A stretch of DNA of 64,000 nt. Origin: Myxococcota bacterium (GTDB lineage Bacteria > Myxococcota_A > SURF-8). Made by a program: the position numbers and the translations under genes. Within the stretch, counting starts at the first letter, position 1, and each line of letters begins with the position of its first letter. The DNA is taken from NCBI GenBank assembly GCA_963674735.2, contig CAXXQS010000001.1, positions 128,001-192,000 of the forward strand, given 5' to 3'. Positions 21,677 through 31,680 of the stretch are shown piece after piece. The notes beneath the pieces were generated by a model. That model worked only from the letters and a program-made list of their open reading frames with translations, was not told the origin of the DNA and made no database searches.

Positions 21677-24600
21677 ATGGCGAAAACGAAAACCCAAGCG
21701 ACGAATCAAATAACAGCCACCCGATCGGGTAAGGACAAAGGCTTCGTCATCGAGAAGCCGGTCAAGCTCTTGAATAAGCAGATAGGCATTGATACGAAAA
21801 AATTCTTTGTGCATGTCGGCCAAGCGGCGGCAGCATTTATCGGTGGTGGCCCTTCAAGCTCAATACCGAAATTATTGGAAGCCGCCTCTGCTTTCAGCTT
21901 AAAGACAACACCGGAAGAACGCGCCTGGGTGTTGGTGCAACGTTCGATGGGACGCGCCCTGAAAGATCTCGTGGAAGAACAGGTCGGCGAACTTGATCTT
22001 GAACGTCTTGAACAAGCGGTGGAGATTGCCGATAAACTCGATTACGGGCTTGAAACTGAAACCGTCGAAATCGACACCCGGTTTTTCGACAATCCCGGCG
22101 CGTGCAGGTATGTCGAGATGATGCGGCCCGTTTTCGAAAGCTGGCTACTCGCCAGCGGCATGGATTCGGCTCGGGCGGAAAATACCGCACGGCGGCTGCC
22201 GTCCTTTTTTAACTCTGCGATCCATCACGAGTTGTATGAAAATGCGGGCAATTACGCCATGATCGTTGAGGCTTTCGACTCCCTCGCTTTCACGGCTGTT
22301 CAGCACGATGCAGATTGGCGGCGCTACCGGGCCAAACTGATGCGGCAAGTGGAAGAAAGCATGCTCGGCGAAGCCTTCGGCCTGAAGGATATCTTTATCG
22401 AGCTTCGGGCTTACTACAAGGAATCCGCGAAAACGAAAAACGAACCCCCATCCAAGCGACTTCTTGCACGCGATATGGACGATGAGAATGATAAGAAGGA
22501 AACGCGACATGTCGTCGATTTGCACGACCACGTTCGCTCCTGGATTGAACAAAGAAGCCAAAAGGATGCATTACGAGTCATCAGTGGTGGGCCCGGCAGC
22601 GGGAAATCTTCGTTTGCCAAAATGCTGGCGGCCGAGCTGGCGGCGGAAAATCGCCTTGTGCTATATATTCCCTTGCACAACATGAATCCTAAAAGCGACC
22701 TCGCCGATTCGGTCGGGGATTTCCTGCATGAGTATGACGACTTCAGGGAGAATCCACTCAGCGTTCCGCAAAGCGACCCGATCGTGCTGCTTTTCGATGG
22801 CTTGGATGAGCTGTCCGAGCGCGGCCGCGCCGGGTATGAGGCCGCCAAGCAATTTATCGAAAAACTGCTGGTGAAGCTGCACCAGAAAAATGATCAAAAA
22901 TGCCAGTGTCAAGCCTTGGTGCTGGGGCGGGATCTCTCGATACAGGCGCAAGATTATTTCTTGAAGAAGGAAAAGACCCTCCATTTATTACCTCTTTGGA
23001 TGACGGAGAAGGAACGTGAGACATTTGTCGATAGGAGAAAGAGACTTGAACACGACTTTCGGCTGGATTGGTGGGCGGCCTATTGCCGCTTGATGCAACA
23101 CGTTGATCCCGAAATGCCGGAATTCTTGAGGCGGGAAGAGCTGGAGGAAATCACGGCGGAACCTTTGCTCATTTACTTGGCGGCACAAACCTTTTTTGAT
23201 GAAAGAATCGATTTCACCCAAACCGTTAGTGTTAACCAGATTTACGGAGCCATGCTGGAATATGTTTGGGAGCGTGGATATGAAGGCCGTCAAGAAGGTC
23301 GGCGGCACAGAGTGATCGATGAATTTGAATTGAAACAAGAGGAATTCACGGCGATCATGCAGGAGGTGGGTGTGGCCGCCTGGCAGGGCCAGGGCCGAAA
23401 AGCCACAACCGAGGCGATCCATCAGCGTTGTGCCCCCAGCCTACAAAAAAAGTTCGAGCGCTTCGCCGATGACGCGCAGAGCGGCGTTTTGCGATTGCTC
23501 ACCGCTTTTTATCTGCGGCGCACGGCCGAGGACCGCGGCGACAACGTGATCGAATTCACGCACAAGAGCTTCGGTGAATATTTGACGGCAAGAAGGATCG
23601 TGCGGCAGTTGTACACCATGGTTGAACAATTGAAAATGCGTGAGCAAGATCAATATGGAAACAATGGTTGGGATGCGGCGGAGGCTTTGTGTAAATGGAT
23701 CGAGTTGACGGGGCCGACCGCCATGGATCGCGATCTTTACCGTTTTGTCGATCGTGAAATCGAATTGGATTATAAGCGCGATCCGGAAATGATCGAGAAT
23801 TGCCAGGAACAGATCGTCAAGTTGATGAACGTTCATCTTCGATACGGCATGCCGATGCAGGATTTGAAACCACGCCTTCCAAAATATCAGGAGGAAACGC
23901 GGCAGGCCAGAAACGCCGATGAAGCCCTGCTGGCCCTTCATTGTGCATGTGCGAAAAGAACGGGAACGTTAAGCCAAATCAAGTGGCCGGAGAAAACGAG
24001 CGCCGGTGCGTGGCTGAGTCGCTTGCAACCTCAGCGATTGGACCTAACAACCACATTAGCTTATGACTGTTTCTCGGATTTGGATTTTTCGCAGCAATGT
24101 TTTGATTTTGCCAATTTCTATAGGGCAAACATACAAAGAAGTAAATTTACTCTATGTTTTATGCTTTTTGCTTCGCTTGTAGATTGTCACGCTTTAAAGG
24201 CACATTTGGAGGTCGCAAATTTATTTGAAGCAAAAATGAAACGCGCGAATTTAAAAGGCGCGTATTTGGATGGTGCGAATATGATTCGCGCGAATTTAAG
24301 TGATGCAAAATTGAATGGTGCGAATTTAAGGGATACAAAATTGAATAGTGCGAATTTGAGAGGCGCGAATTTAAGGGATGCAAAATTGAATGGTGCGAAT
24401 TTAAGGGATGCAAAAATGGGTTACGCGGATTTGGGTTACGCGGATTTGGAAGGCGCGGATTTGGAAGGTGCGCAATTGGAAATCGCGATTTTGGAAGATG
24501 CGAATTTGAGCGATGCGAATTTGTGGGGTGCAAATTTGAGGGATGCGAATTTGAGGGACGCGAATTTGGAAGGCGCGAATTTGGTAAACGCGAATTTGGA

Positions 24601-24739
24601 ACGTGCGAATTTGGGACGCGCGGATTTGAGCGGCGCGGATTTGAGAGGCGCGAATTTGGAAGGCGCGAATTTCGAGGGTGCGAATTTGACCGGCACCATT
24701 CTGGATAAGAAGCGCAAGCCCCGAAAAAGCACCGACTAG
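21677..24739 (+). CDS. NACHT-like STAND NTPase with C-terminal pentapeptide repeats
   Basis: GGPGSGKSS, IVLLFDGLDE, PLL, FTHKSFGEYLTA; A(N/D)LxG repeats. Confidence 0.88.
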   Translation: MAKTKTQATNQITATRSGKDKGFVIEKPVKLLNKQIGIDTKKFFVHVGQAAAAFIGGGPSSSIPKLLEAASAFSLKTTPEERAWVLVQRSMGRALKDLVEEQVGELDLERLEQAVEIADKLDYGLETETVEIDTRFFDNPGACRYVEMMRPVFESWLLASGMDSARAENTARRLPSFFNSAIHHELYENAGNYAMIVEAFDSLAFTAVQHDADWRRYRAKLMRQVEESMLGEAFGLKDIFIELRAYYKESAKTKNEPPSKRLLARDMDDENDKKETRHVVDLHDHVRSWIEQRSQKDALRVISGGPGSGKSSFAKMLAAELAAENRLVLYIPLHNMNPKSDLADSVGDFLHEYDDFRENPLSVPQSDPIVLLFDGLDELSERGRAGYEAAKQFIEKLLVKLHQKNDQKCQCQALVLGRDLSIQAQDYFLKKEKTLHLLPLWMTEKERETFVDRRKRLEHDFRLDWWAAYCRLMQHVDPEMPEFLRREELEEITAEPLLIYLAAQTFFDERIDFTQTVSVNQIYGAMLEYVWERGYEGRQEGRRHRVIDEFELKQEEFTAIMQEVGVAAWQGQGRKATTEAIHQRCAPSLQKKFERFADDAQSGVLRLLTAFYLRRTAEDRGDNVIEFTHKSFGEYLTARRIVRQLYTMVEQLKMREQDQYGNNGWDAAEALCKWIELTGPTAMDRDLYRFVDREIELDYKRDPEMIENCQEQIVKLMNVHLRYGMPMQDLKPRLPKYQEETRQARNADEALLALHCACAKRTGTLSQIKWPEKTSAGAWLSRLQPQRLDLTTTLAYDCFSDLDFSQQCFDFANFYRANIQRSKFTLCFMLFASLVDCHALKAHLEVANLFEAKMKRANLKGAYLDGANMIRANLSDAKLNGANLRDTKLNSANLRGANLRDAKLNGANLRDAKMGYADLGYADLEGADLEGAQLEIAILEDANLSDANLWGANLRDANLRDANLEGANLVNANLERANLGRADLSGADLRGANLEGANFEGANLTGTILDKKRKPRKSTD
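24240..24700 (+). repeat. Pentapeptide-repeat array (15-bp units GCG(A/G)ATTT...)
   Basis: Repeated ANL/ADL units; AT-richer codon usage. Confidence 0.9.
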
Positions 24740-25935: not shown

Positions 25936-26001
25936 ATCCATGTCAGACGCCAGAACTCGTGACAGAAACGGCGGGTTACTCCCGCTTCAAAGTGAGACGT
26001 G

Positions 26002-27135
26002 ATGAAGGTTATTTTACACCTCACGAAAAACTGCAATCTGCGTTGCCGCTACTGCTACGCGCCGGAAAAAGTAGACGAGCCGATGTCGCTGGAGGTGGCG
26101 CAAAAGGCCATCGATTTGGCCATCGAAACCGGCAAAACCAGCGCCTGCGTGTCGTTTTTCGGCGGCGAGCCACTGCTGCTTTTCGATCGCATGCAGGAGT
26201 TGACCGCCTATGCCGAGGCGCGCGGCGAAGAGAGCGGCACGGCCATGTACTTCCGGCTGTCCACCAACGGCACGCTGTTCACCGAAGAGAGCCTGGCTTT
26301 CTGTCGCGACCACAAAATTCTATTCGCCCTCTCGCTCGACGGCGACCGCGAGGCGCATAACGCCCAACGCGTCTTTCCCGACGGCACGGGCAGCTTCGAT
26401 GTCCTCGACGCCAAGCTGCCCATGATCCTGCATTACAACCCCTACACCGTCGTAACCAGCGTCATCACGCCGCCGACGGTGGGGCGCCTTTACGAATCGA
26501 TGGAGTATCTCTGGTCGCGCGGCCTGCGCTACGTCGTGCACCAACTCGACTATACCCATCCCGACTGGACCCCCGCGCATTTCGAGACGCTGGCGGAAAG
26601 CTACCGCAAGCTGGGTGCGTTTTACCTCGACCGCATGCGGGCGGGCGAGCGCTTTCATATGGGGCTGTTCGACGACAAGCTGAAGTCGCACACCCGCGAG
26701 CCGATCCGCTACGGGGCGATCTGCGATTTCGGGGCGAGGAAGGTCTCGGTGGCCCCCGACGGCACGATTTTCCCCTGCGTGCAGTTCGTCTCCGACCGCG
26801 ACGACGCCAAGCGTTACGCTATCGGACACGTGGAAAGCGGCTTTACGCCCCGGCGTCAGGAATTGATCACGCTCAACAAACGTCCGCGCCGTCCCTGCGA
26901 CAGTTGCGCCTTTCTGGGACGCTGCGCCAATTACTGCGGTTGCATGAGCTGGCAGTTGACCGGCCACGTGCTGGAAGTGCCGCCGATTCTATGCAGTCAT
27001 GAACGCATGCTCATCCCCATCGCCGACGAGCTGGGAACCCGCTTGTGGGAGGAGCGTAATCCGACGTTTCTAAATAAGCATTACAAGCATTTGCATCAGA
27101 TGATCGATCCGCAATCCCGGTATGCATTCGATTAA
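26002..27135 (+). CDS. Radical SAM/SPASM domain maturase
   Basis: CNLRCRYC, FFGGEPLL, STNGT, SLDG; SPASM C...G.IFPC...CDSC(x5)C(x3)CGC...C; no N-terminal RRE; start ATG 26002 or GTG 25999. Confidence 0.92.
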   Translation: MKVILHLTKNCNLRCRYCYAPEKVDEPMSLEVAQKAIDLAIETGKTSACVSFFGGEPLLLFDRMQELTAYAEARGEESGTAMYFRLSTNGTLFTEESLAFCRDHKILFALSLDGDREAHNAQRVFPDGTGSFDVLDAKLPMILHYNPYTVVTSVITPPTVGRLYESMEYLWSRGLRYVVHQLDYTHPDWTPAHFETLAESYRKLGAFYLDRMRAGERFHMGLFDDKLKSHTREPIRYGAICDFGARKVSVAPDGTIFPCVQFVSDRDDAKRYAIGHVESGFTPRRQELITLNKRPRRPCDSCAFLGRCANYCGCMSWQLTGHVLEVPPILCSHERMLIPIADELGTRLWEERNPTFLNKHYKHLHQMIDPQSRYAFD

Positions 27136-27145
27136 GGGGGCTGCC

Positions 27146-28678
27146 ATGTCGCACACACCATTCAAAGTCAAACCCGTCAAACGCTATGGCGGGGCGCGTT
27201 ATCACTCGGAAGTCGGCACGGAGTTGACCGCGCGCGCCTGCTGGCTCTCGGCCATTGCCCCGGCCAAACTCGTGCGGGGAGCCGTGACCTTGCTTCTGGC
27301 CGCCAGTCTGGCACTGGGCGTGATGGCCTGCGGTGACGACACCACCATCCACATCAAACCCGGTGGCGGGGAGAACGTCGACGGCGATACCGACAGCGGC
27401 GAGTCGGGCGGAACGCCGCCTCCGCTGTTCTGCCTGGAAGAGGGCCTGATTTTCTGTGCCGATGAGGATAACGTGTGGTCCTGTGAAAACGGACTACCGG
27501 TGAAACGGGATTGCGACGAGGTCTGCCGGGAGGAACGCGGTTCCGAATATTACTCGATCCGGTGTGATGATGACGATCCGGAGGATCTGTGCCGCTGCAC
27601 CTACGACATTATGGAGGGCGAACCGGCGGAATGTGTGCCGGGAGACCTGCGCTGTCGCGACATATTCACTGCCGAAACGTGTTCGGACGGTTATTACGAG
27701 GCCATCAACTGCGATGTCTATTGCCAGGAGAACTACGGCTGGGAATACTATTCGATTGGCTGCGACAATGACAACCTCGACAATGCCTGTCAGTGCCAAT
27801 ATGGGATGACCGACGGCGAGGGGGTGCAATGCGAACCGGGAGACGTTCAATGTCGCAATGATAACACGGCTAAATTGTGCCCCAATTACTCTTATGTGGA
27901 GGTCGATTGCGATCTTTACTGCCAGCAAACTTACGGTTCGGATTACTACTCCATGGGCTGTGATGCCAATACTCCCGAGAACGTCTGCCTGTGCGAATAC
28001 GGTGTGACCGACGGCGAGCCGGCGGAATGTCAGCCGGGGGAGGCGTATTGTATCGATAACGACGAGATCGCCGTTTGCTCGGCGGACGACTACAGCTTCC
28101 ACCTCGAATTCTGTTCCGATTACTGCCGGACATATTACGGCAACGATTATTACTCCACCGGTTGCTATGAAAGCAACTACGACAATCCCTGCGGTTGCGA
28201 ATACGACATCGTCGACGGCGATATCGCGGAATGCTATGTCGGTGAAGAGGCCTGTGCGGCGGAGGGTGGCTTGTTGATGTGCATTCCCTATGGCGGGGAT
28301 GTGCCCGAAGGCCACGAGGGCGAAGCGGGTATGTGGGAATCCATCAGTTGCGACAGCTATTGCGTGGAGACCTACGGTGACGACTATTATTCGCCGATAG
28401 GTTGCCAGGCCGACGATCCGGACGACAACGGCGAGTTGTGCAGCTGTGAATACGGCGCGTTGGACGGTGTCGCGCCCAACGAATGCCTGCCCGACGAGGC
28501 TTATTGCGACCCCGACGACAACCTTGTGGCCTGCGACGGCGGAGAAGGCTGGGGCTATTGGGTCACCCAAAACTGCACGGACGCCTGCGCGGCGCTCGAT
28601 CCGCCGATGGTCTCCACCGGTTGCGACGCGGAAAATGCGGATAATCCCTGTTTGTGCGCCGAAGACGAGGATCGATGA
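27146..28678 (+). CDS. Leader-bearing Cys-rich repeat lipoprotein A (six 8-Cys modules); putative rSAM substrate
   Basis: 62-aa N-terminus ending in lipobox VMAC; six ~66-aa modules joined by C.Y(G/D)..(D/E)G(E/D/V) linkers; 10 nt after the rSAM stop. Confidence 0.85.
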   Translation: MSHTPFKVKPVKRYGGARYHSEVGTELTARACWLSAIAPAKLVRGAVTLLLAASLALGVMACGDDTTIHIKPGGGENVDGDTDSGESGGTPPPLFCLEEGLIFCADEDNVWSCENGLPVKRDCDEVCREERGSEYYSIRCDDDDPEDLCRCTYDIMEGEPAECVPGDLRCRDIFTAETCSDGYYEAINCDVYCQENYGWEYYSIGCDNDNLDNACQCQYGMTDGEGVQCEPGDVQCRNDNTAKLCPNYSYVEVDCDLYCQQTYGSDYYSMGCDANTPENVCLCEYGVTDGEPAECQPGEAYCIDNDEIAVCSADDYSFHLEFCSDYCRTYYGNDYYSTGCYESNYDNPCGCEYDIVDGDIAECYVGEEACAAEGGLLMCIPYGGDVPEGHEGEAGMWESISCDSYCVETYGDDYYSPIGCQADDPDDNGELCSCEYGALDGVAPNECLPDEAYCDPDDNLVACDGGEGWGYWVTQNCTDACAALDPPMVSTGCDAENADNPCLCAEDEDR

Positions 28679-28755
28679 CGGGTTCAGCCGGGACGCTCAG
28701 TGTGGATGGGTGAGCGGAGCTTGTAGACGGAGCGAAAAAGTAAAGGAACGCTGAT

Positions 28756-29745
28756 TTGTCACGCGATACATTCAAGCTGAAGCCCGTCAAACGCTATCAC
28801 GGGGCGCGTTATTATTCGGAAATGGGTCTCACGCTCCAGGCGCGCGCCTGCTGGCTGTCGACGATCGTCCCGGCCAGGCTTGCGCGGGGGGCCGTGACCT
28901 TGCTGCTGGCCGCCGGTCTGGCCTTCGGCGGTATGGGCTGTGAGGGGAAGTTAATCGAAGAAGTCGAACCGGACGGGGATCTGCCGCCCGTCAACAACGG
29001 AGTTTGCGAAGAAGGCGAAGTCCGATGCAACGATGAAACAACGGTCGGAGTCTGCCGCGATGGCCGTTTTCGGTTTCTGACCTGCAATAAATACTGCAGC
29101 AAATTCGTCAGTGATGAATATACCAGCCAAACGAATCGCTGTAGTGAAAGTGATCCGGAAAATCTGTGCAGTTGCGGTTTCGATTTCACTATCGGCGATG
29201 GAGAACCGGTTATGTGTAGGACCGGGGATATTATTTGCCACGAGGAGCAGACCATCGGAATTTGTGACAACCGCAATTTTTATCAATATACGGATTGCGG
29301 CCAATACTGCGAAGACAACTTCGGCAAAGGCTTTTGCCCCACCGTTTGCAAGGCCGACCAACCGGACAATCTCTGCGGTTGCCGCTACAACATCACCGAT
29401 GGCACGGCGCAAGAATGTGCGCCGGGATCGATCCGCTGCATGGACGATCACTATGGAAATAAAGATTGGGTGGGAATTTGCGTCGAGGGCCACTATCAGT
29501 ATCAGAAGTGCAAAAGCTATTGCATTGAAACGTTTGACCCCGGTTGGTATCCGCGCGATTGCGATGCCGACAAACCCGACGATTTTTGCGGCTGCCATCA
29601 AAAGACCGCGCCCGACGGGGATGAAGATACGGGAACGAATTTAGACGGTGACGCCGATACCGAATTGGAAGATGAGACGGATTTGGACGCGGAAGCGGGA
29701 TCCGAAGAGGATAGGGATACCCAAAGCGAAGCCGGGGAGTTATAA
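28756..29745 (+). CDS. Leader-bearing Cys-rich repeat lipoprotein B (three modules, acidic tail); paralog of A
   Basis: TTG start with AAGGA RBS; 44/62 identity to A over the leader/signal; lipobox GMGC. Confidence 0.85.
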   Translation: MSRDTFKLKPVKRYHGARYYSEMGLTLQARACWLSTIVPARLARGAVTLLLAAGLAFGGMGCEGKLIEEVEPDGDLPPVNNGVCEEGEVRCNDETTVGVCRDGRFRFLTCNKYCSKFVSDEYTSQTNRCSESDPENLCSCGFDFTIGDGEPVMCRTGDIICHEEQTIGICDNRNFYQYTDCGQYCEDNFGKGFCPTVCKADQPDNLCGCRYNITDGTAQECAPGSIRCMDDHYGNKDWVGICVEGHYQYQKCKSYCIETFDPGWYPRDCDADKPDDFCGCHQKTAPDGDEDTGTNLDGDADTELEDETDLDAEAGSEEDRDTQSEAGEL

Positions 29746-29790
29746 TACGCGATAAGTCGAAGCCGTGAAACCTACGCCGGGAGGTGCGTG

Positions 29791-31680
29791 ATGAAACGGA
29801 TGATGATGTCGGGATTGTTGCTGCTGCTGTTGCTTGTTGTATTGGCGGCTTGCCTGGGTACCGAAGAGACGGTCAGCGGTAGCGACGGTGACGACCCCGA
29901 TGGCGATGACCCGGACGGCGACGACCCGGATGGCGACGACCCGGACGGCGACGAGCCGGATGGCCCCTGCGAAAAGAATTTCGACTGCATCCCCTCTCAA
30001 TATTGCGATTTCTGCGCGGCGTCCTCCTGTGCCAATTGCGACGACTGCCTGGCCCTGTGCGTGGATCATGGCTGCGGTACCGAGACGGAGAATACCTGCG
30101 GTCGGCCGCGCTCGGACTGTGTGGCGGGGCAGGTGTCGGTGATTCGCGACGGCTGCTGGGTCTGCGTCGACCGTGAAAGCTGCGCCTTTGTGCGTGATGC
30201 CCGCTGCGACGACGGCCTGCCGCTGCAGTGCAACAGTCCCACCCCCGAATGCGCCGCCGATGAAATCCTGGCGCATCAGCAAGGCTGCTATGTCTGCGTC
30301 AATCCCGATAACTGCGATCCGTGGAAAGAAACGGAGTGCGAAAGCGACCGCGATTGCTCGGCCGCCTACTACTGCGAAGAATGCTCCATGTCTTCCTGTC
30401 CGGACTGCGAGGACTGCATCGCCGGTTGCTGGCCGCATCTGTGTGAAACGGAATACGAGTTGCTGTGCGATATGGAGCGCCCCGCCTGCGGCGACGAAGG
30501 CGCGTCGGTGATTCGCGACGGTTGTTGGATCTGTGTGAATCGCGACAGCTGCGAACCGATCAACGGTGAGCACGATCCGAGTTGCGACGATGGCAGCGAG
30601 CCGTTATGCGACATGGTGGAACCGGTTTGCGACGGGCACGAAATCTTGGCCTACCGGAATAGCTGCTACCTCTGTGTCAATCCGGCTACCTGCGAGCCCT
30701 GGGGCGTGCCCAACTGCGCCGGCGATACGGATTGCCCGGTCGACCAATGGTGCAATGGCTGCGGATCGTCCTCCTGCCCGATCTGCGCCGATTGCGTGGC
30801 GGCCTGTGTGCCCCACGGTTGCGAAACGCAACCCGAAGCAACCTGCGATATGGCGCGCCCCGACTGCGGTGCAAGCGGTGTGGCGGTGATTCGCGACGGC
30901 TGCTGGATCTGTGTGAACCGCAGTACCTGTCAACCCACCGGCGGACACGATCCGAGCTGCGATGACGGCGCGCCGGTGACCTGCAACAGTCCGGCCCCCG
31001 AGTGCGGAACGTATGAAATTCTGGCTTATCAGGATGGCTGTCACGTCTGCGTGAATCCGGCCACCTGCAAACCCTGGGGTCAGGCGGGATGCGAGCACCA
31101 GGCCGATTGTCCGGTGGAGGATTACTGCGATCCTTGCGGCACCGCACCGTGTCCCGACTGCGATGCCTGTCTGCCCGCCTGCATGCCCCATGGTTGTCAG
31201 ACCGAGGCCGTGGCCACATGCAAAATGATGCGTCCCGATTGCGGGTTGGGAAAGGCGGCGGTGGTCAAGGACGGCTGCTGGGTTTGTGTGACCCTGGGCT
31301 CCTGTTCACCCACCCGCGACGAGCATTGCGACGACGGTACCGATCCTATTTGCAACATGGTCGAGCCCACCTGCGGCGAACATGAGATTCTGGCTTACCA
31401 GGATAACTGCTATGTCTGCGTCAATCCGCTCACCTGTAAACCCTGGGGGGAAAGCGGCTGCACGCACGACTATGATTGCGACGCGGCGCTTGCCTGTGAC
31501 GGCTGCGCGACCTCCTCCTGTCCTCTATGCGGCGATTGCGTGGCCGCTTGCGTGCCGCACGGTTGTCCCACCGAACCGGTTCCCGCCTGCTACATGATGC
31601 GTCCCGATTGCGATGCGGGCCAGGTGGCGGTGGTGCAGGATTTGTGCTGGGTCTGCGTGGACGACCAAACCTGCCAGTAA
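29791..31680 (+). CDS. Very Cys-rich repeat lipoprotein C (about 4.5 copies of a ~125-aa unit)
   Basis: Ordinary signal peptide with lipobox LAAC; (DGDDP)n linker; repeated SSCP.C.DC, RDGCWVCV, CDDG, EILAY, CVNP.TC.PWG. Confidence 0.85.
   Translation: MKRMMMSGLLLLLLLVVLAACLGTEETVSGSDGDDPDGDDPDGDDPDGDDPDGDEPDGPCEKNFDCIPSQYCDFCAASSCANCDDCLALCVDHGCGTETENTCGRPRSDCVAGQVSVIRDGCWVCVDRESCAFVRDARCDDGLPLQCNSPTPECAADEILAHQQGCYVCVNPDNCDPWKETECESDRDCSAAYYCEECSMSSCPDCEDCIAGCWPHLCETEYELLCDMERPACGDEGASVIRDGCWICVNRDSCEPINGEHDPSCDDGSEPLCDMVEPVCDGHEILAYRNSCYLCVNPATCEPWGVPNCAGDTDCPVDQWCNGCGSSSCPICADCVAACVPHGCETQPEATCDMARPDCGASGVAVIRDGCWICVNRSTCQPTGGHDPSCDDGAPVTCNSPAPECGTYEILAYQDGCHVCVNPATCKPWGQAGCEHQADCPVEDYCDPCGTAPCPDCDACLPACMPHGCQTEAVATCKMMRPDCGLGKAAVVKDGCWVCVTLGSCSPTRDEHCDDGTDPICNMVEPTCGEHEILAYQDNCYVCVNPLTCKPWGESGCTHDYDCDAALACDGCATSSCPLCGDCVAACVPHGCPTEPVPACYMMRPDCDAGQVAVVQDLCWVCVDDQTCQ
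29884..29963 (+). repeat. 15-bp coding tandem repeat (DGDDP) x5
   Basis: Read directly from the sequence. Confidence 0.85.

Follow-up and report, generated by a model that had tools for sequence, protein, structure and literature searches.

Two predicted Cys-rich lipoproteins encoded next to a radical-SAM enzyme

We analysed a stretch of 64,000 nucleotides (nt) from a Myxococcota bacterium (the window; contig CAXXQS010000001.1, positions 128,001 to 192,000 of the forward strand), in which a gene for a radical S-adenosylmethionine (SAM) enzyme with a SPASM domain is followed by two genes for cysteine-rich proteins. Both proteins open with a conserved segment that precedes a lipoprotein-type signal peptide. 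This pre-signal segment, which we call the leader, and its relation to the enzyme are the subject of this report. Four genes between 25999 and 31680 lie on the plus strand with short gaps between them, and the features of the locus are as follows (lengths in amino acids, aa):

25999–27135, plus strand: radical-SAM/SPASM enzyme, 378 aa, with CX3CX2C at residues 12–19, a seven-cysteine SPASM motif and C315
27134–27140, plus strand: Shine–Dalgarno-like AAGGGGG, 5 nt before the ATG at 27146 and overlapping the stop codon of the radical-SAM gene
27146–28678, plus strand: first protein, 510 aa, directly downstream of the radical-SAM gene
27146–27259, plus strand: pre-signal leader of the first protein, residues 1–38; the putative core docking motif, residues 4–22, lies at 27155–27211 and is followed by a lineage-specific ARACWLS helix
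27260–27331, plus strand: lipoprotein-type signal peptide of the first protein, residues 39–62, with K41 and R44 in the n-region, the h-region AVTLLLAASLALG and a lipobox-like VMAC containing Cys62 (assigned by lipobox pattern and hydropathy scan)
27332–28678, plus strand: remainder of the first protein, predicted to be exported, with an acidic linker and then ~67-residue 8-Cys repeats in an array
28756–29745, plus strand: second protein, 329 aa, TTG start, with AAAGGA 8 nt upstream of the start
28756–28869, plus strand: pre-signal leader of the second protein, residues 1–38; core motif at 28765–28821 (assigned from alignments)
28870–28941, plus strand: lipoprotein-type signal peptide of the second protein (P0007), residues 39–62 with Cys62 (assigned by pattern and by a helix at residues 40–61 in an AlphaFold2 model)
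28942–29745, plus strand: remainder of the second protein, predicted to be exported, comprising three 8-Cys repeats with an acidic tail
29788–31680, plus strand: third Cys-rich lipoprotein, 630 aa, unrelated to the first two, with an ordinary 22-residue signal and no leader

An earlier note on this DNA had drawn attention to the gap-free match between the two N-termini (27146–27331 and 28756–28941), and our realignment confirmed it: 44/62 residues are identical, with the TTG start counted as Met, and Cys occupies residue 62 in both. The underlying DNA repeat is 75–82% identical and ends exactly at the Cys62 codon. In the AlphaFold2 model of the second protein, residues 1–19 form a coil, and residues 27–37 and 40–61 form helices. 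The first gene has an alternative ATG at 27122 among the listed open reading frames, and the motif is included from either start. We prefer 27146 because of the AAGGGGG just upstream and because homologues start 4–6 codons before an invariant Phe. Such was the arrangement at all 11 leader loci that we examined in six related Myxococcota genomes, each of which also has a ribosome-binding site and, slightly further upstream, an in-frame stop; the ribosome-binding sites, of GGAGG or AAGG type, occupy the place that matches 27134–27140. As read from these start codons, translation begins upstream of the motif and not downstream of it, the case that the earlier note had named as fatal to its proposal.

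The note had also asked whether the two leaders are equally similar at synonymous sites, as recent gene conversion would predict. The answer was mixed. Between the window copies, the leader has a synonymous divergence (dS) of 0.59 and a nonsynonymous divergence (dN) of 0.22 by the Nei–Gojobori method, so that synonymous identity is below amino acid identity (dN/dS 0.37); the mature part looks saturated. On the other hand, synonymous identity between these two copies is raised: at conserved degenerate positions, 29/41 leader codons are identical against 16.4 expected from codon usage, as compared with 26/67 in the mature part. When the window copies were compared with leaders from other genomes, dS ranged from 0.89 to saturation while dN was 0.37–0.65. 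Synonymous sites at or near saturation with this level of dN indicate that the leader is constrained at the protein level.

The claim that the mature parts share little beyond Cys spacing did not survive. Both are homologous arrays of 8-Cys repeats: a local alignment without the leader has 67/195 identical residues, and BLASTP segments outside the leader reach E = 2e-29. Each repeat ends with C-x-C-E-Y-[GD]-Φ-x-D-G-[DE]. Searches of Pfam and NCBIfam with the first protein's exported part gave no match. The repeats of the second are modelled by AlphaFold2 as blocks with pLDDT ~90, and a Foldseek search of this model against PDB returned nothing at E <= 1e-3, the best rows being weak EGF- or lectin-like matches.

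The lipobox pattern of PROSITE PS51257 is matched by both window proteins and by 17/23 members of the leader family described below, with the Cys at residues 59–63. The usual rule also limits this Cys to about residues 15–35, and the Cys falls beyond that range because the extension precedes the signal peptide. Two further family members are near-misses, and two (P0016 and P0018) lack the lipobox Cys. Ahead of the hydrophobic segment, 19/23 members carry a net charge of +2 to +9, which fits a cytoplasmic N-terminus. The signal h-region (AVTLLLAAGLALG) is unusually conserved across genera for a signal peptide in a 13-sequence alignment that includes the 11 related loci and both window copies. 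The window proteins lack the twin-arginine translocation (Tat) motif (S/T-R-R-x-F-L-K type), having PAKLVRG and PARLARG instead, and neither has any Pfam match at E <= 0.01, be it to the extended signal peptide region (ESPR) of autotransporters or to another family. The earlier note had contrasted these proteins with other lipoproteins of the window that have short signals; this holds for the single one checked, at 29788–31680, in which the Cys is residue 22.

The leader family and its enzyme

We searched 61 related genomes, including the source genome, and called a leader at E < 1e-3. It was found in 7/61, the source genome included, all seven belonging to one family or order. F6, Y14, Y19, W33, L34, L50 and C62 are invariant in 13/13 aligned sequences, and Cys32 of the ARACW motif is kept in 10/13. 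The second Tyr precedes His or Tyr in the window proteins, and Y-P is kept in five family members. A protein search of the source genome gave no leader copies beyond the two window genes; a regular-expression scan over its 34,421 frames gave 11 matches, of which only the two window genes are real, the other nine lacking the basic motif. Two candidate leader genes with E ~0.01 (L033 and L034) were rejected as false matches with unrelated sequences. A profile search of 1.84 billion representative proteins returned 22 matches at E <= 1e-3, 21 of which begin at residue 1 and all within the first six residues; this confinement to protein N-termini argues that the resemblance is not due to chance.

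The leader behaves as a module that is joined to different exported parts. At least three kinds occur among the 22 proteins: most have the 8-Cys repeat, P0010 and P0012 have Cys-free repeats rich in Asp, Tyr and Gly, and P0016, P0018 and P0019 have an unrelated ~180-aa domain. The motif [YF]-[DG]-Φ-[TIM]-[DE]-G-[DE], which closes each 8-Cys repeat of the window proteins (EYGVTDGE, EYDIVDGD; 27581–28219 and 29158–29403), also occurs in Cys-free exported parts of Myxococcota leader proteins (HYDITDG, YQVTDGEGLPYDY; P0010, P0012 and L115 1227–1919, minus strand). This motif might serve the enzyme as a common core site, or it might simply be an acidic linker.

The product of 25999–27135 matches Radical_SAM and Fer4_12 in Pfam, and the cysteines C12/C16/C19, C242-x12-G255-x4-C260, C300/C303/C309/C313 and C332 are invariant in 7/7 orthologs. 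They follow the SPASM definition (CX9-15GX4C ... CX2CX5CX3C ... C), and on these motifs we assign the protein to the radical-SAM/SPASM enzymes. An extra invariant Cys, C315, forms a C-x-C (Y-C-G-C-M; residues 313–315, 26935–26943) that is typical of the leader-linked clade and absent from aligned PapB-like loci; it could complete the ligation of an auxiliary cluster. The clade-specific part of the sequence further includes a C-terminal helix, HERMLIPIADE...LW...F..KHY. The best NCBIfam match of the enzyme is the PapB-like family NF047865 (204.4 bits, E = 2.6e-60), below the cut-off of 340; its relatives from Akkermansia and Saprospiraceae score 183 and 198 bits against the same family. Scores fall well short of the cut-offs for the CrpC-type family TIGR04463 (53 vs 525 bits), the HxsB family (94.5 vs 370), the anaerobic sulfatase maturase TIGR03942 (79.8 vs 349) and QhpD TIGR03906 (136.3 vs 453), and there are weak matches to the cyclophane formers YhhB, FxsB and AmcB. 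The 586 homologues at E <= 1e-40 are named merely 'radical SAM protein' or 'uncharacterized'.

The enzyme lacks an N-terminal RRE, the recognition element for RiPPs (peptides made by ribosomes and modified after translation): its residues 2–5 align to positions 79–99 of RRE-bearing families (nif11-type, CcpM, QhpD and SCIFF maturases). This start is common to all seven orthologs, and no PqqD-like match was found in the seven neighbouring proteins scanned with Pfam.

Enzyme and leader occur together. Orthologs of the enzyme (E <= 1e-87) are present in 8/61 related genomes, namely all seven leader-bearing ones and G007; G043 has a more distant copy, and the remaining 52/61 genomes have neither enzyme nor leader. 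In 7/11 related loci, the gene immediately upstream of the leader is the enzyme ortholog. At one of these seven (L022 6747–7930, on contig C33 of G009) the ortholog is spread over two overlapping frames (residues 2–241 and 238–378), either a frameshift or an assembly error, and the downstream leader gene is intact. G004 holds two enzyme–leader pairs. The enzyme of the second (L031/L035) is 56% identical to the window enzyme, and its 200-aa partner has a Cys-free exported part and a leader without Cys32 (GLATW). In G007 and G043, neighbours of the enzyme carry shorter 'YP'-type motifs: KLKSYKAGYPA, LVKVVSYNAAYPT and xxYP[ASD]...RRREFL.

We then searched the enzyme alignment against one genome per species. 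This search placed the source organism in the phylum Myxococcota and found enzymes at 31–44% identity in Saprospiraceae, Akkermansia, Krumholzibacteriia, Planctomycetota, Verrucomicrobiota, Kiritimatiellia and Fibrobacter. At the start of their same-strand neighbours stands either Φ-x-Φ-x-[PKR]-Φ-x-[RK]-Y-x-x-[AP]-x-Y-P-[STRK] or x-Y-P-x alone; behind this motif comes a signal peptide of the Sec or Tat type, in most cases with a lipobox Cys. We counted such neighbours by a simple rule (same strand, YP within residues 4–32, then a hydrophobic run of at least 11 residues), which gives approximate counts, admitting a few false neighbours and missing L037. By this rule a YP-neighbour is present at 25/37 loci whose enzyme is at least 31% identical, as compared with 7/43 loci below 31%, where the neighbours picked out look spurious; by frames, 31/486 on the same strand fit the rule against 3/970 in the opposite-strand control. 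Both window genes fit the proposed, uncurated pairing, having a basic N-terminus, a Tyr within ~30 residues, a predicted signal peptide and a lipobox-like Cys. We regard the window leader as a lineage-specific elaboration of a wider signature, minimally Tyr-Pro before a signal peptide, found alongside this enzyme clade across several phyla. The pairing recurs in at least six phyla and includes the gut bacterium Akkermansia.

Twelve partner proteins from these other lineages had no Pfam or NCBIfam match. Eight partners from Saprospiraceae, Akkermansia, Krumholzibacteriia and Planctomycetota (L037, L038, L039, L040, L041, L042, L044 and L047) share an exported domain outside Pfam and NCBIfam, recognizable by an early '..E.EA..I....F...GI.L', by 'ΦDG[FY][DN]....[IV]G[YF]' and by a C-terminus such as 'YI.WAK.QG.Y' or 'LKAHGVI'. 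A subclade with short leaders (L116 7276–9228, minus strand, of G043; L046; L048; L055) has a twin-arginine-like RREFL or RRQFL directly after YP, and L040 likewise carries a motif of this type after YP, so that Tat may take the place of Sec in part of the system. Several of the short-leader partners are small, at 99–180 aa, and contain short repeats of acidic or Pro-rich type, DEFPPLAG[DE] for instance.

Modelled docking and competing explanations

We modelled the complex from the enzyme alignment, three 4Fe–4S clusters, SAM and leader residues 1–46, in three runs and with three controls. The score was 0.84 (runs 0.85, 0.84 and 0.84), and the best of the three controls scored 0.00. In calibration, the score mark was reached by 58/80 solved complexes and by 2/110 mismatched pairs, counts that serve only as a rough guide here because custom alignments were used and ligands were included. 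At least 70% of contacts are common to the runs, and the pLDDT of the partner is 56. In the model, leader residues 4–22 and 24 contact enzyme residues 190–192, 231–233, 299–305, 327–336, 340–351 and 362–365, a surface formed by the C-terminal helix and the last Cys motif of SPASM; residues 25–46 are not confidently placed. The leader stretch in contact coincides exactly with the part that is conserved across phyla, and the docking surface of the enzyme, C-x-HE[RK]ML-x-P-I-x-D ... LW ... F..K[HF]Y, is conserved in the leader-linked clade but absent from PapB-like outgroups. Pro340, which contacts Tyr14 in the model, is present at 9/10 loci with the first Tyr in the leader and at 1/10 with the short YP form. 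This co-occurrence is suggestive; since the loci are related, the counts are not independent and phylogeny confounds them.

The earlier note had proposed that the basic/Tyr motif is an enzyme-recognition leader or an export-delay signal. The first of these gained support from the co-occurrence in 7/7 genomes, the adjacency at 7/11 loci, the pairs in other phyla and the complex model with its controls; an export delay, the second, would be compatible with docking. We therefore think it probable that the extension is a docking leader for the radical-SAM/SPASM enzyme encoded immediately upstream, with this function carried by residues 4–22. The basic and aromatic core (F-K-x-K-P-V-K-R-Y-x-x-A-R-Y-x-S-E) would bind the clade-specific C-terminal SPASM region, as in the model, and the docked pre-lipoprotein would be held at the enzyme in the cytoplasm, where it would undergo radical modification before export. 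Sec would then export the chain, and signal peptidase II would cut at Cys62 and thereby remove the leader. The further idea that the Cys of ARACW contacts an auxiliary Fe–S cluster fared poorly: Cys32 is missing from three of the 13 sequences and from the leaders of other phyla, and it lies outside the modelled contacts.

Several observations weigh against the docking leader. Four of the 11 leader genes are orphans, with the enzyme encoded elsewhere in the same genome. Without an RRE, the usual leader receptor, recognition would have to be non-canonical, and the support for binding comes from one structure-prediction job in which the partner pLDDT was only 56. The predicted cleavage at Cys62, like the lipidation, comes from a sequence pattern whose position limit the proteins exceed. 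The codon counts suggest that the leader halves of the tandem genes have been partly homogenised at the DNA level, which inflates the 44/62 figure yet does not explain the conservation of the leader. Finally, any modifiable motif common to the very different exported parts is hypothetical, and 27 partners from other lineages mostly have 0–2 Cys besides the lipobox Cys; the Cys-rich repeats of the window proteins need not, then, be the target.

Ranthipeptide-type thioethers in the Cys-rich repeats were considered as a clade-wide role of the enzyme and rejected: most partners outside this order, as well as P0010 and P0012, are Cys-free in the exported part, and exported parts so poor in Cys cannot supply a general thioether chemistry. 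In the two window proteins, Cys followed by Asp or Glu is abundant and the best family match of the enzyme makes thioethers, so ranthionine-type links are possible there, by analogy with archaeal CrpA.

All partners have in common the leader (with Tyr, usually Tyr-Pro), the signal peptide and, usually, a Cys. The enzyme might act on the leader itself, modifying the invariant Tyr of a YP-type motif, a residue beside it or the segment that comes next (W33-L34 in this family); the modified piece would either gate export or, once freed by signal peptidase II, be the functional product, and the exported protein would be a mere carrier. We hold this main rival to be unlikely, though it has points in its favour: leader and signal segment are the sole common element while the exported parts are unrelated (Cys-rich, Cys-free acidic, globular, and proteins of 83–104 aa), Tyr-Pro alone persists from phylum to phylum, conservation of the signal h-region is unusually high, and the enzyme weakly matches cyclophane formers. 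SPASM enzymes that act on Tyr or other aromatics include PqqE, MftC and the cyclophane formers. Set against this, the model seats residues 4–22 on the SPASM surface at the C-terminus, beside ligands of the second auxiliary cluster (C300, C303 and C332) and not among residues of the SAM-cluster site, and our literature searches gave no precedent for modification on a discarded signal peptide. The idea overlaps with the docking leader, since docking and modification could both sit in the leader. In its general form, which we regard as a minority possibility, a widespread RRE-less SPASM enzyme would act on the pre-signal segment (the Tyr of YP or aromatics just after it) and so license or time export, or make a modified signal-derived peptide. 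Such a leader-modifying pathway, of which our searches gave no description, would span Myxococcota, Bacteroidota, Verrucomicrobiota (including Akkermansia), Planctomycetota, Fibrobacterota and others.

We consider it improbable that the extension is instead an uncleaved cytoplasmic tail which, together with a membrane anchor, tethers the radical-SAM enzyme to the membrane or translocon. The positive charge before a 20-residue hydrophobic helix, the two members without a lipobox Cys and the modelled binding between tail and enzyme would all fit such a tether. However, 17/23 members fit the lipobox and two more come near, the acidic linkers after the Cys are typical of lipoproteins, and a Cys after the hydrophobic run recurs in most partners from other phyla.

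There is little to recommend an ESPR-like extension that modulates Sec or signal recognition particle (SRP) targeting independently of the enzyme, with adjacency being incidental. A conserved segment N-terminal to a classical signal peptide is what defines the ESPR, and the four leader genes that lie away from the enzyme would be expected. Against it, leader and enzyme co-occur without exception in the genomes searched, their genes are neighbours again in other phyla, the complex model scores well above its controls, and Pfam gives no ESPR match.

An artefactual similarity, produced by recent gene conversion between the tandem paralogues or by a start called wrongly and without function at the protein level, is refuted as the sole cause, for although the excess of identical codons and the leader dS of 0.59 beside a mature part that looks saturated make conversion a contributor to the 44/62 figure, the leader is kept in six other genomes at the divergences given above, with conserved start codons and ribosome-binding sites and 22/22 database matches at the N-terminus.

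Known systems and other genes of the window

The closest known system in logic is CrpA/CrpB/CrpC of Methanococcus voltae. CrpA and CrpB are paralogues that share 47 N-terminal residues before Cys-rich repeats, and the adjacent SPASM enzyme CrpC modifies both, installing protein thioether (ranthionine) cross-links, with the N-terminus aiding engagement of the enzyme (PMC13692751, as far as the available text describes it). The likeness to the window comprises adjacent paralogues with a near-identical N-terminus (47 residues in Crp, 62 here), Cys-rich repeats, a SPASM gene alongside and a protein as substrate. The differences are as clear. CrpC is an RRE-bearing member of TIGR04463, for which the RRE-less window enzyme scores only a tenth or so of the cut-off; the available text of PMC13692751 describes no signal peptide or lipobox behind the Crp N-terminus, whereas the window leader precedes one; and Crp is archaeal and the window system bacterial, with many partners of its enzyme clade having no Cys to cross-link.

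PapB, the best-scoring curated family for the enzyme, performs leader-guided, core-promiscuous Cys-to-Asp/Glu cross-linking, and the PapA leader is expected to bind the RRE of PapB (PMC9413430, available text). In keeping with the PapA/PapB (freyrasin) system, Cys with a following Asp or Glu is frequent in the window proteins. Unlike PapB, the window enzyme has no RRE and scores 204 bits against the cut-off of 340; PapA, as described in that text, is a short peptide without a signal peptide, and at the PapB-like locus L084 neither the C-terminal surface nor the C-x-C of the clade is present.

The proposed modification in the cytoplasm before export has parallels in other enzyme families. Bufferins are RiPPs modified by MNIO enzymes in the cytoplasm and then exported by Sec through an N-terminal signal peptide, and some of their precursors are large and Cys-rich; in contrast to the window system, the enzymes are MNIO/DUF692 and DUF2063 proteins, no separate pre-signal leader is described, and the signal peptide was dispensable for modification in that study (PMC11626156, available text). 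In the HXS antiphage system, HxsA, a repeat protein with a signal peptide, needs cytoplasmic radical-SAM partners before it functions in the periplasm; unlike the window proteins, it has a 22-residue signal at the very N-terminus and, in the available text, no pre-signal leader (PMC13128918). The defence role is known for the HxsA system, to which we liken the window system by architecture only.

Segments that act around a signal peptide are also known from ESPRs, which lie N-terminal to classical signal peptides of autotransporters, and from Tat chaperones, cytoplasmic proteins that bind the signal region before export. These are functional analogies only: there is no sequence relation, the partner here is an Fe–S radical enzyme, and the window proteins have no twin-arginine.

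Searches of the open-access literature and bioRxiv gave no description of a radical-SAM enzyme paired with lipoproteins that bear a pre-signal leader, although a supplemental list of bacterial radical-SAM-associated Cys-rich proteins in PMC13692751, outside our search, might include relatives. Leader-guided radical-SAM chemistry is well known for short peptides and was shown only recently for a whole protein, CrpA. The features that would be new here are the order leader, signal peptide, lipobox, a predicted RRE-independent docking and a multi-phylum distribution. If the docking model is true, proteins that undergo radical modification before leaving by Sec or Tat could be found by a simple sequence signature, leader recognition would have a new mode that needs no RRE and uses the SPASM C-terminus, and the varied exported parts would raise the question of which modification the enzyme makes.

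As for the rest of the window, an Rfam search of its whole length found no RNA family, and a promoter and terminator scan was uninformative, terminator counts being no higher than in shuffled sequence. The third lipoprotein (29788–31680) has no Pfam or NCBIfam match and no counterpart in the 11 related loci; it contains a (DGDDP)n linker and 4–5 copies of a different Cys-rich repeat of ~125 residues, spaced at 369–378 nt. Two genes upstream of the radical-SAM gene, in an adjacency that is not kept in the 11 related loci, 21677–24739 (plus strand) encodes a 1020-aa STAND-type protein composed of a NACHT N-terminal helical domain 3, a NACHT NTPase and a long C-terminal array of pentapeptide repeats.

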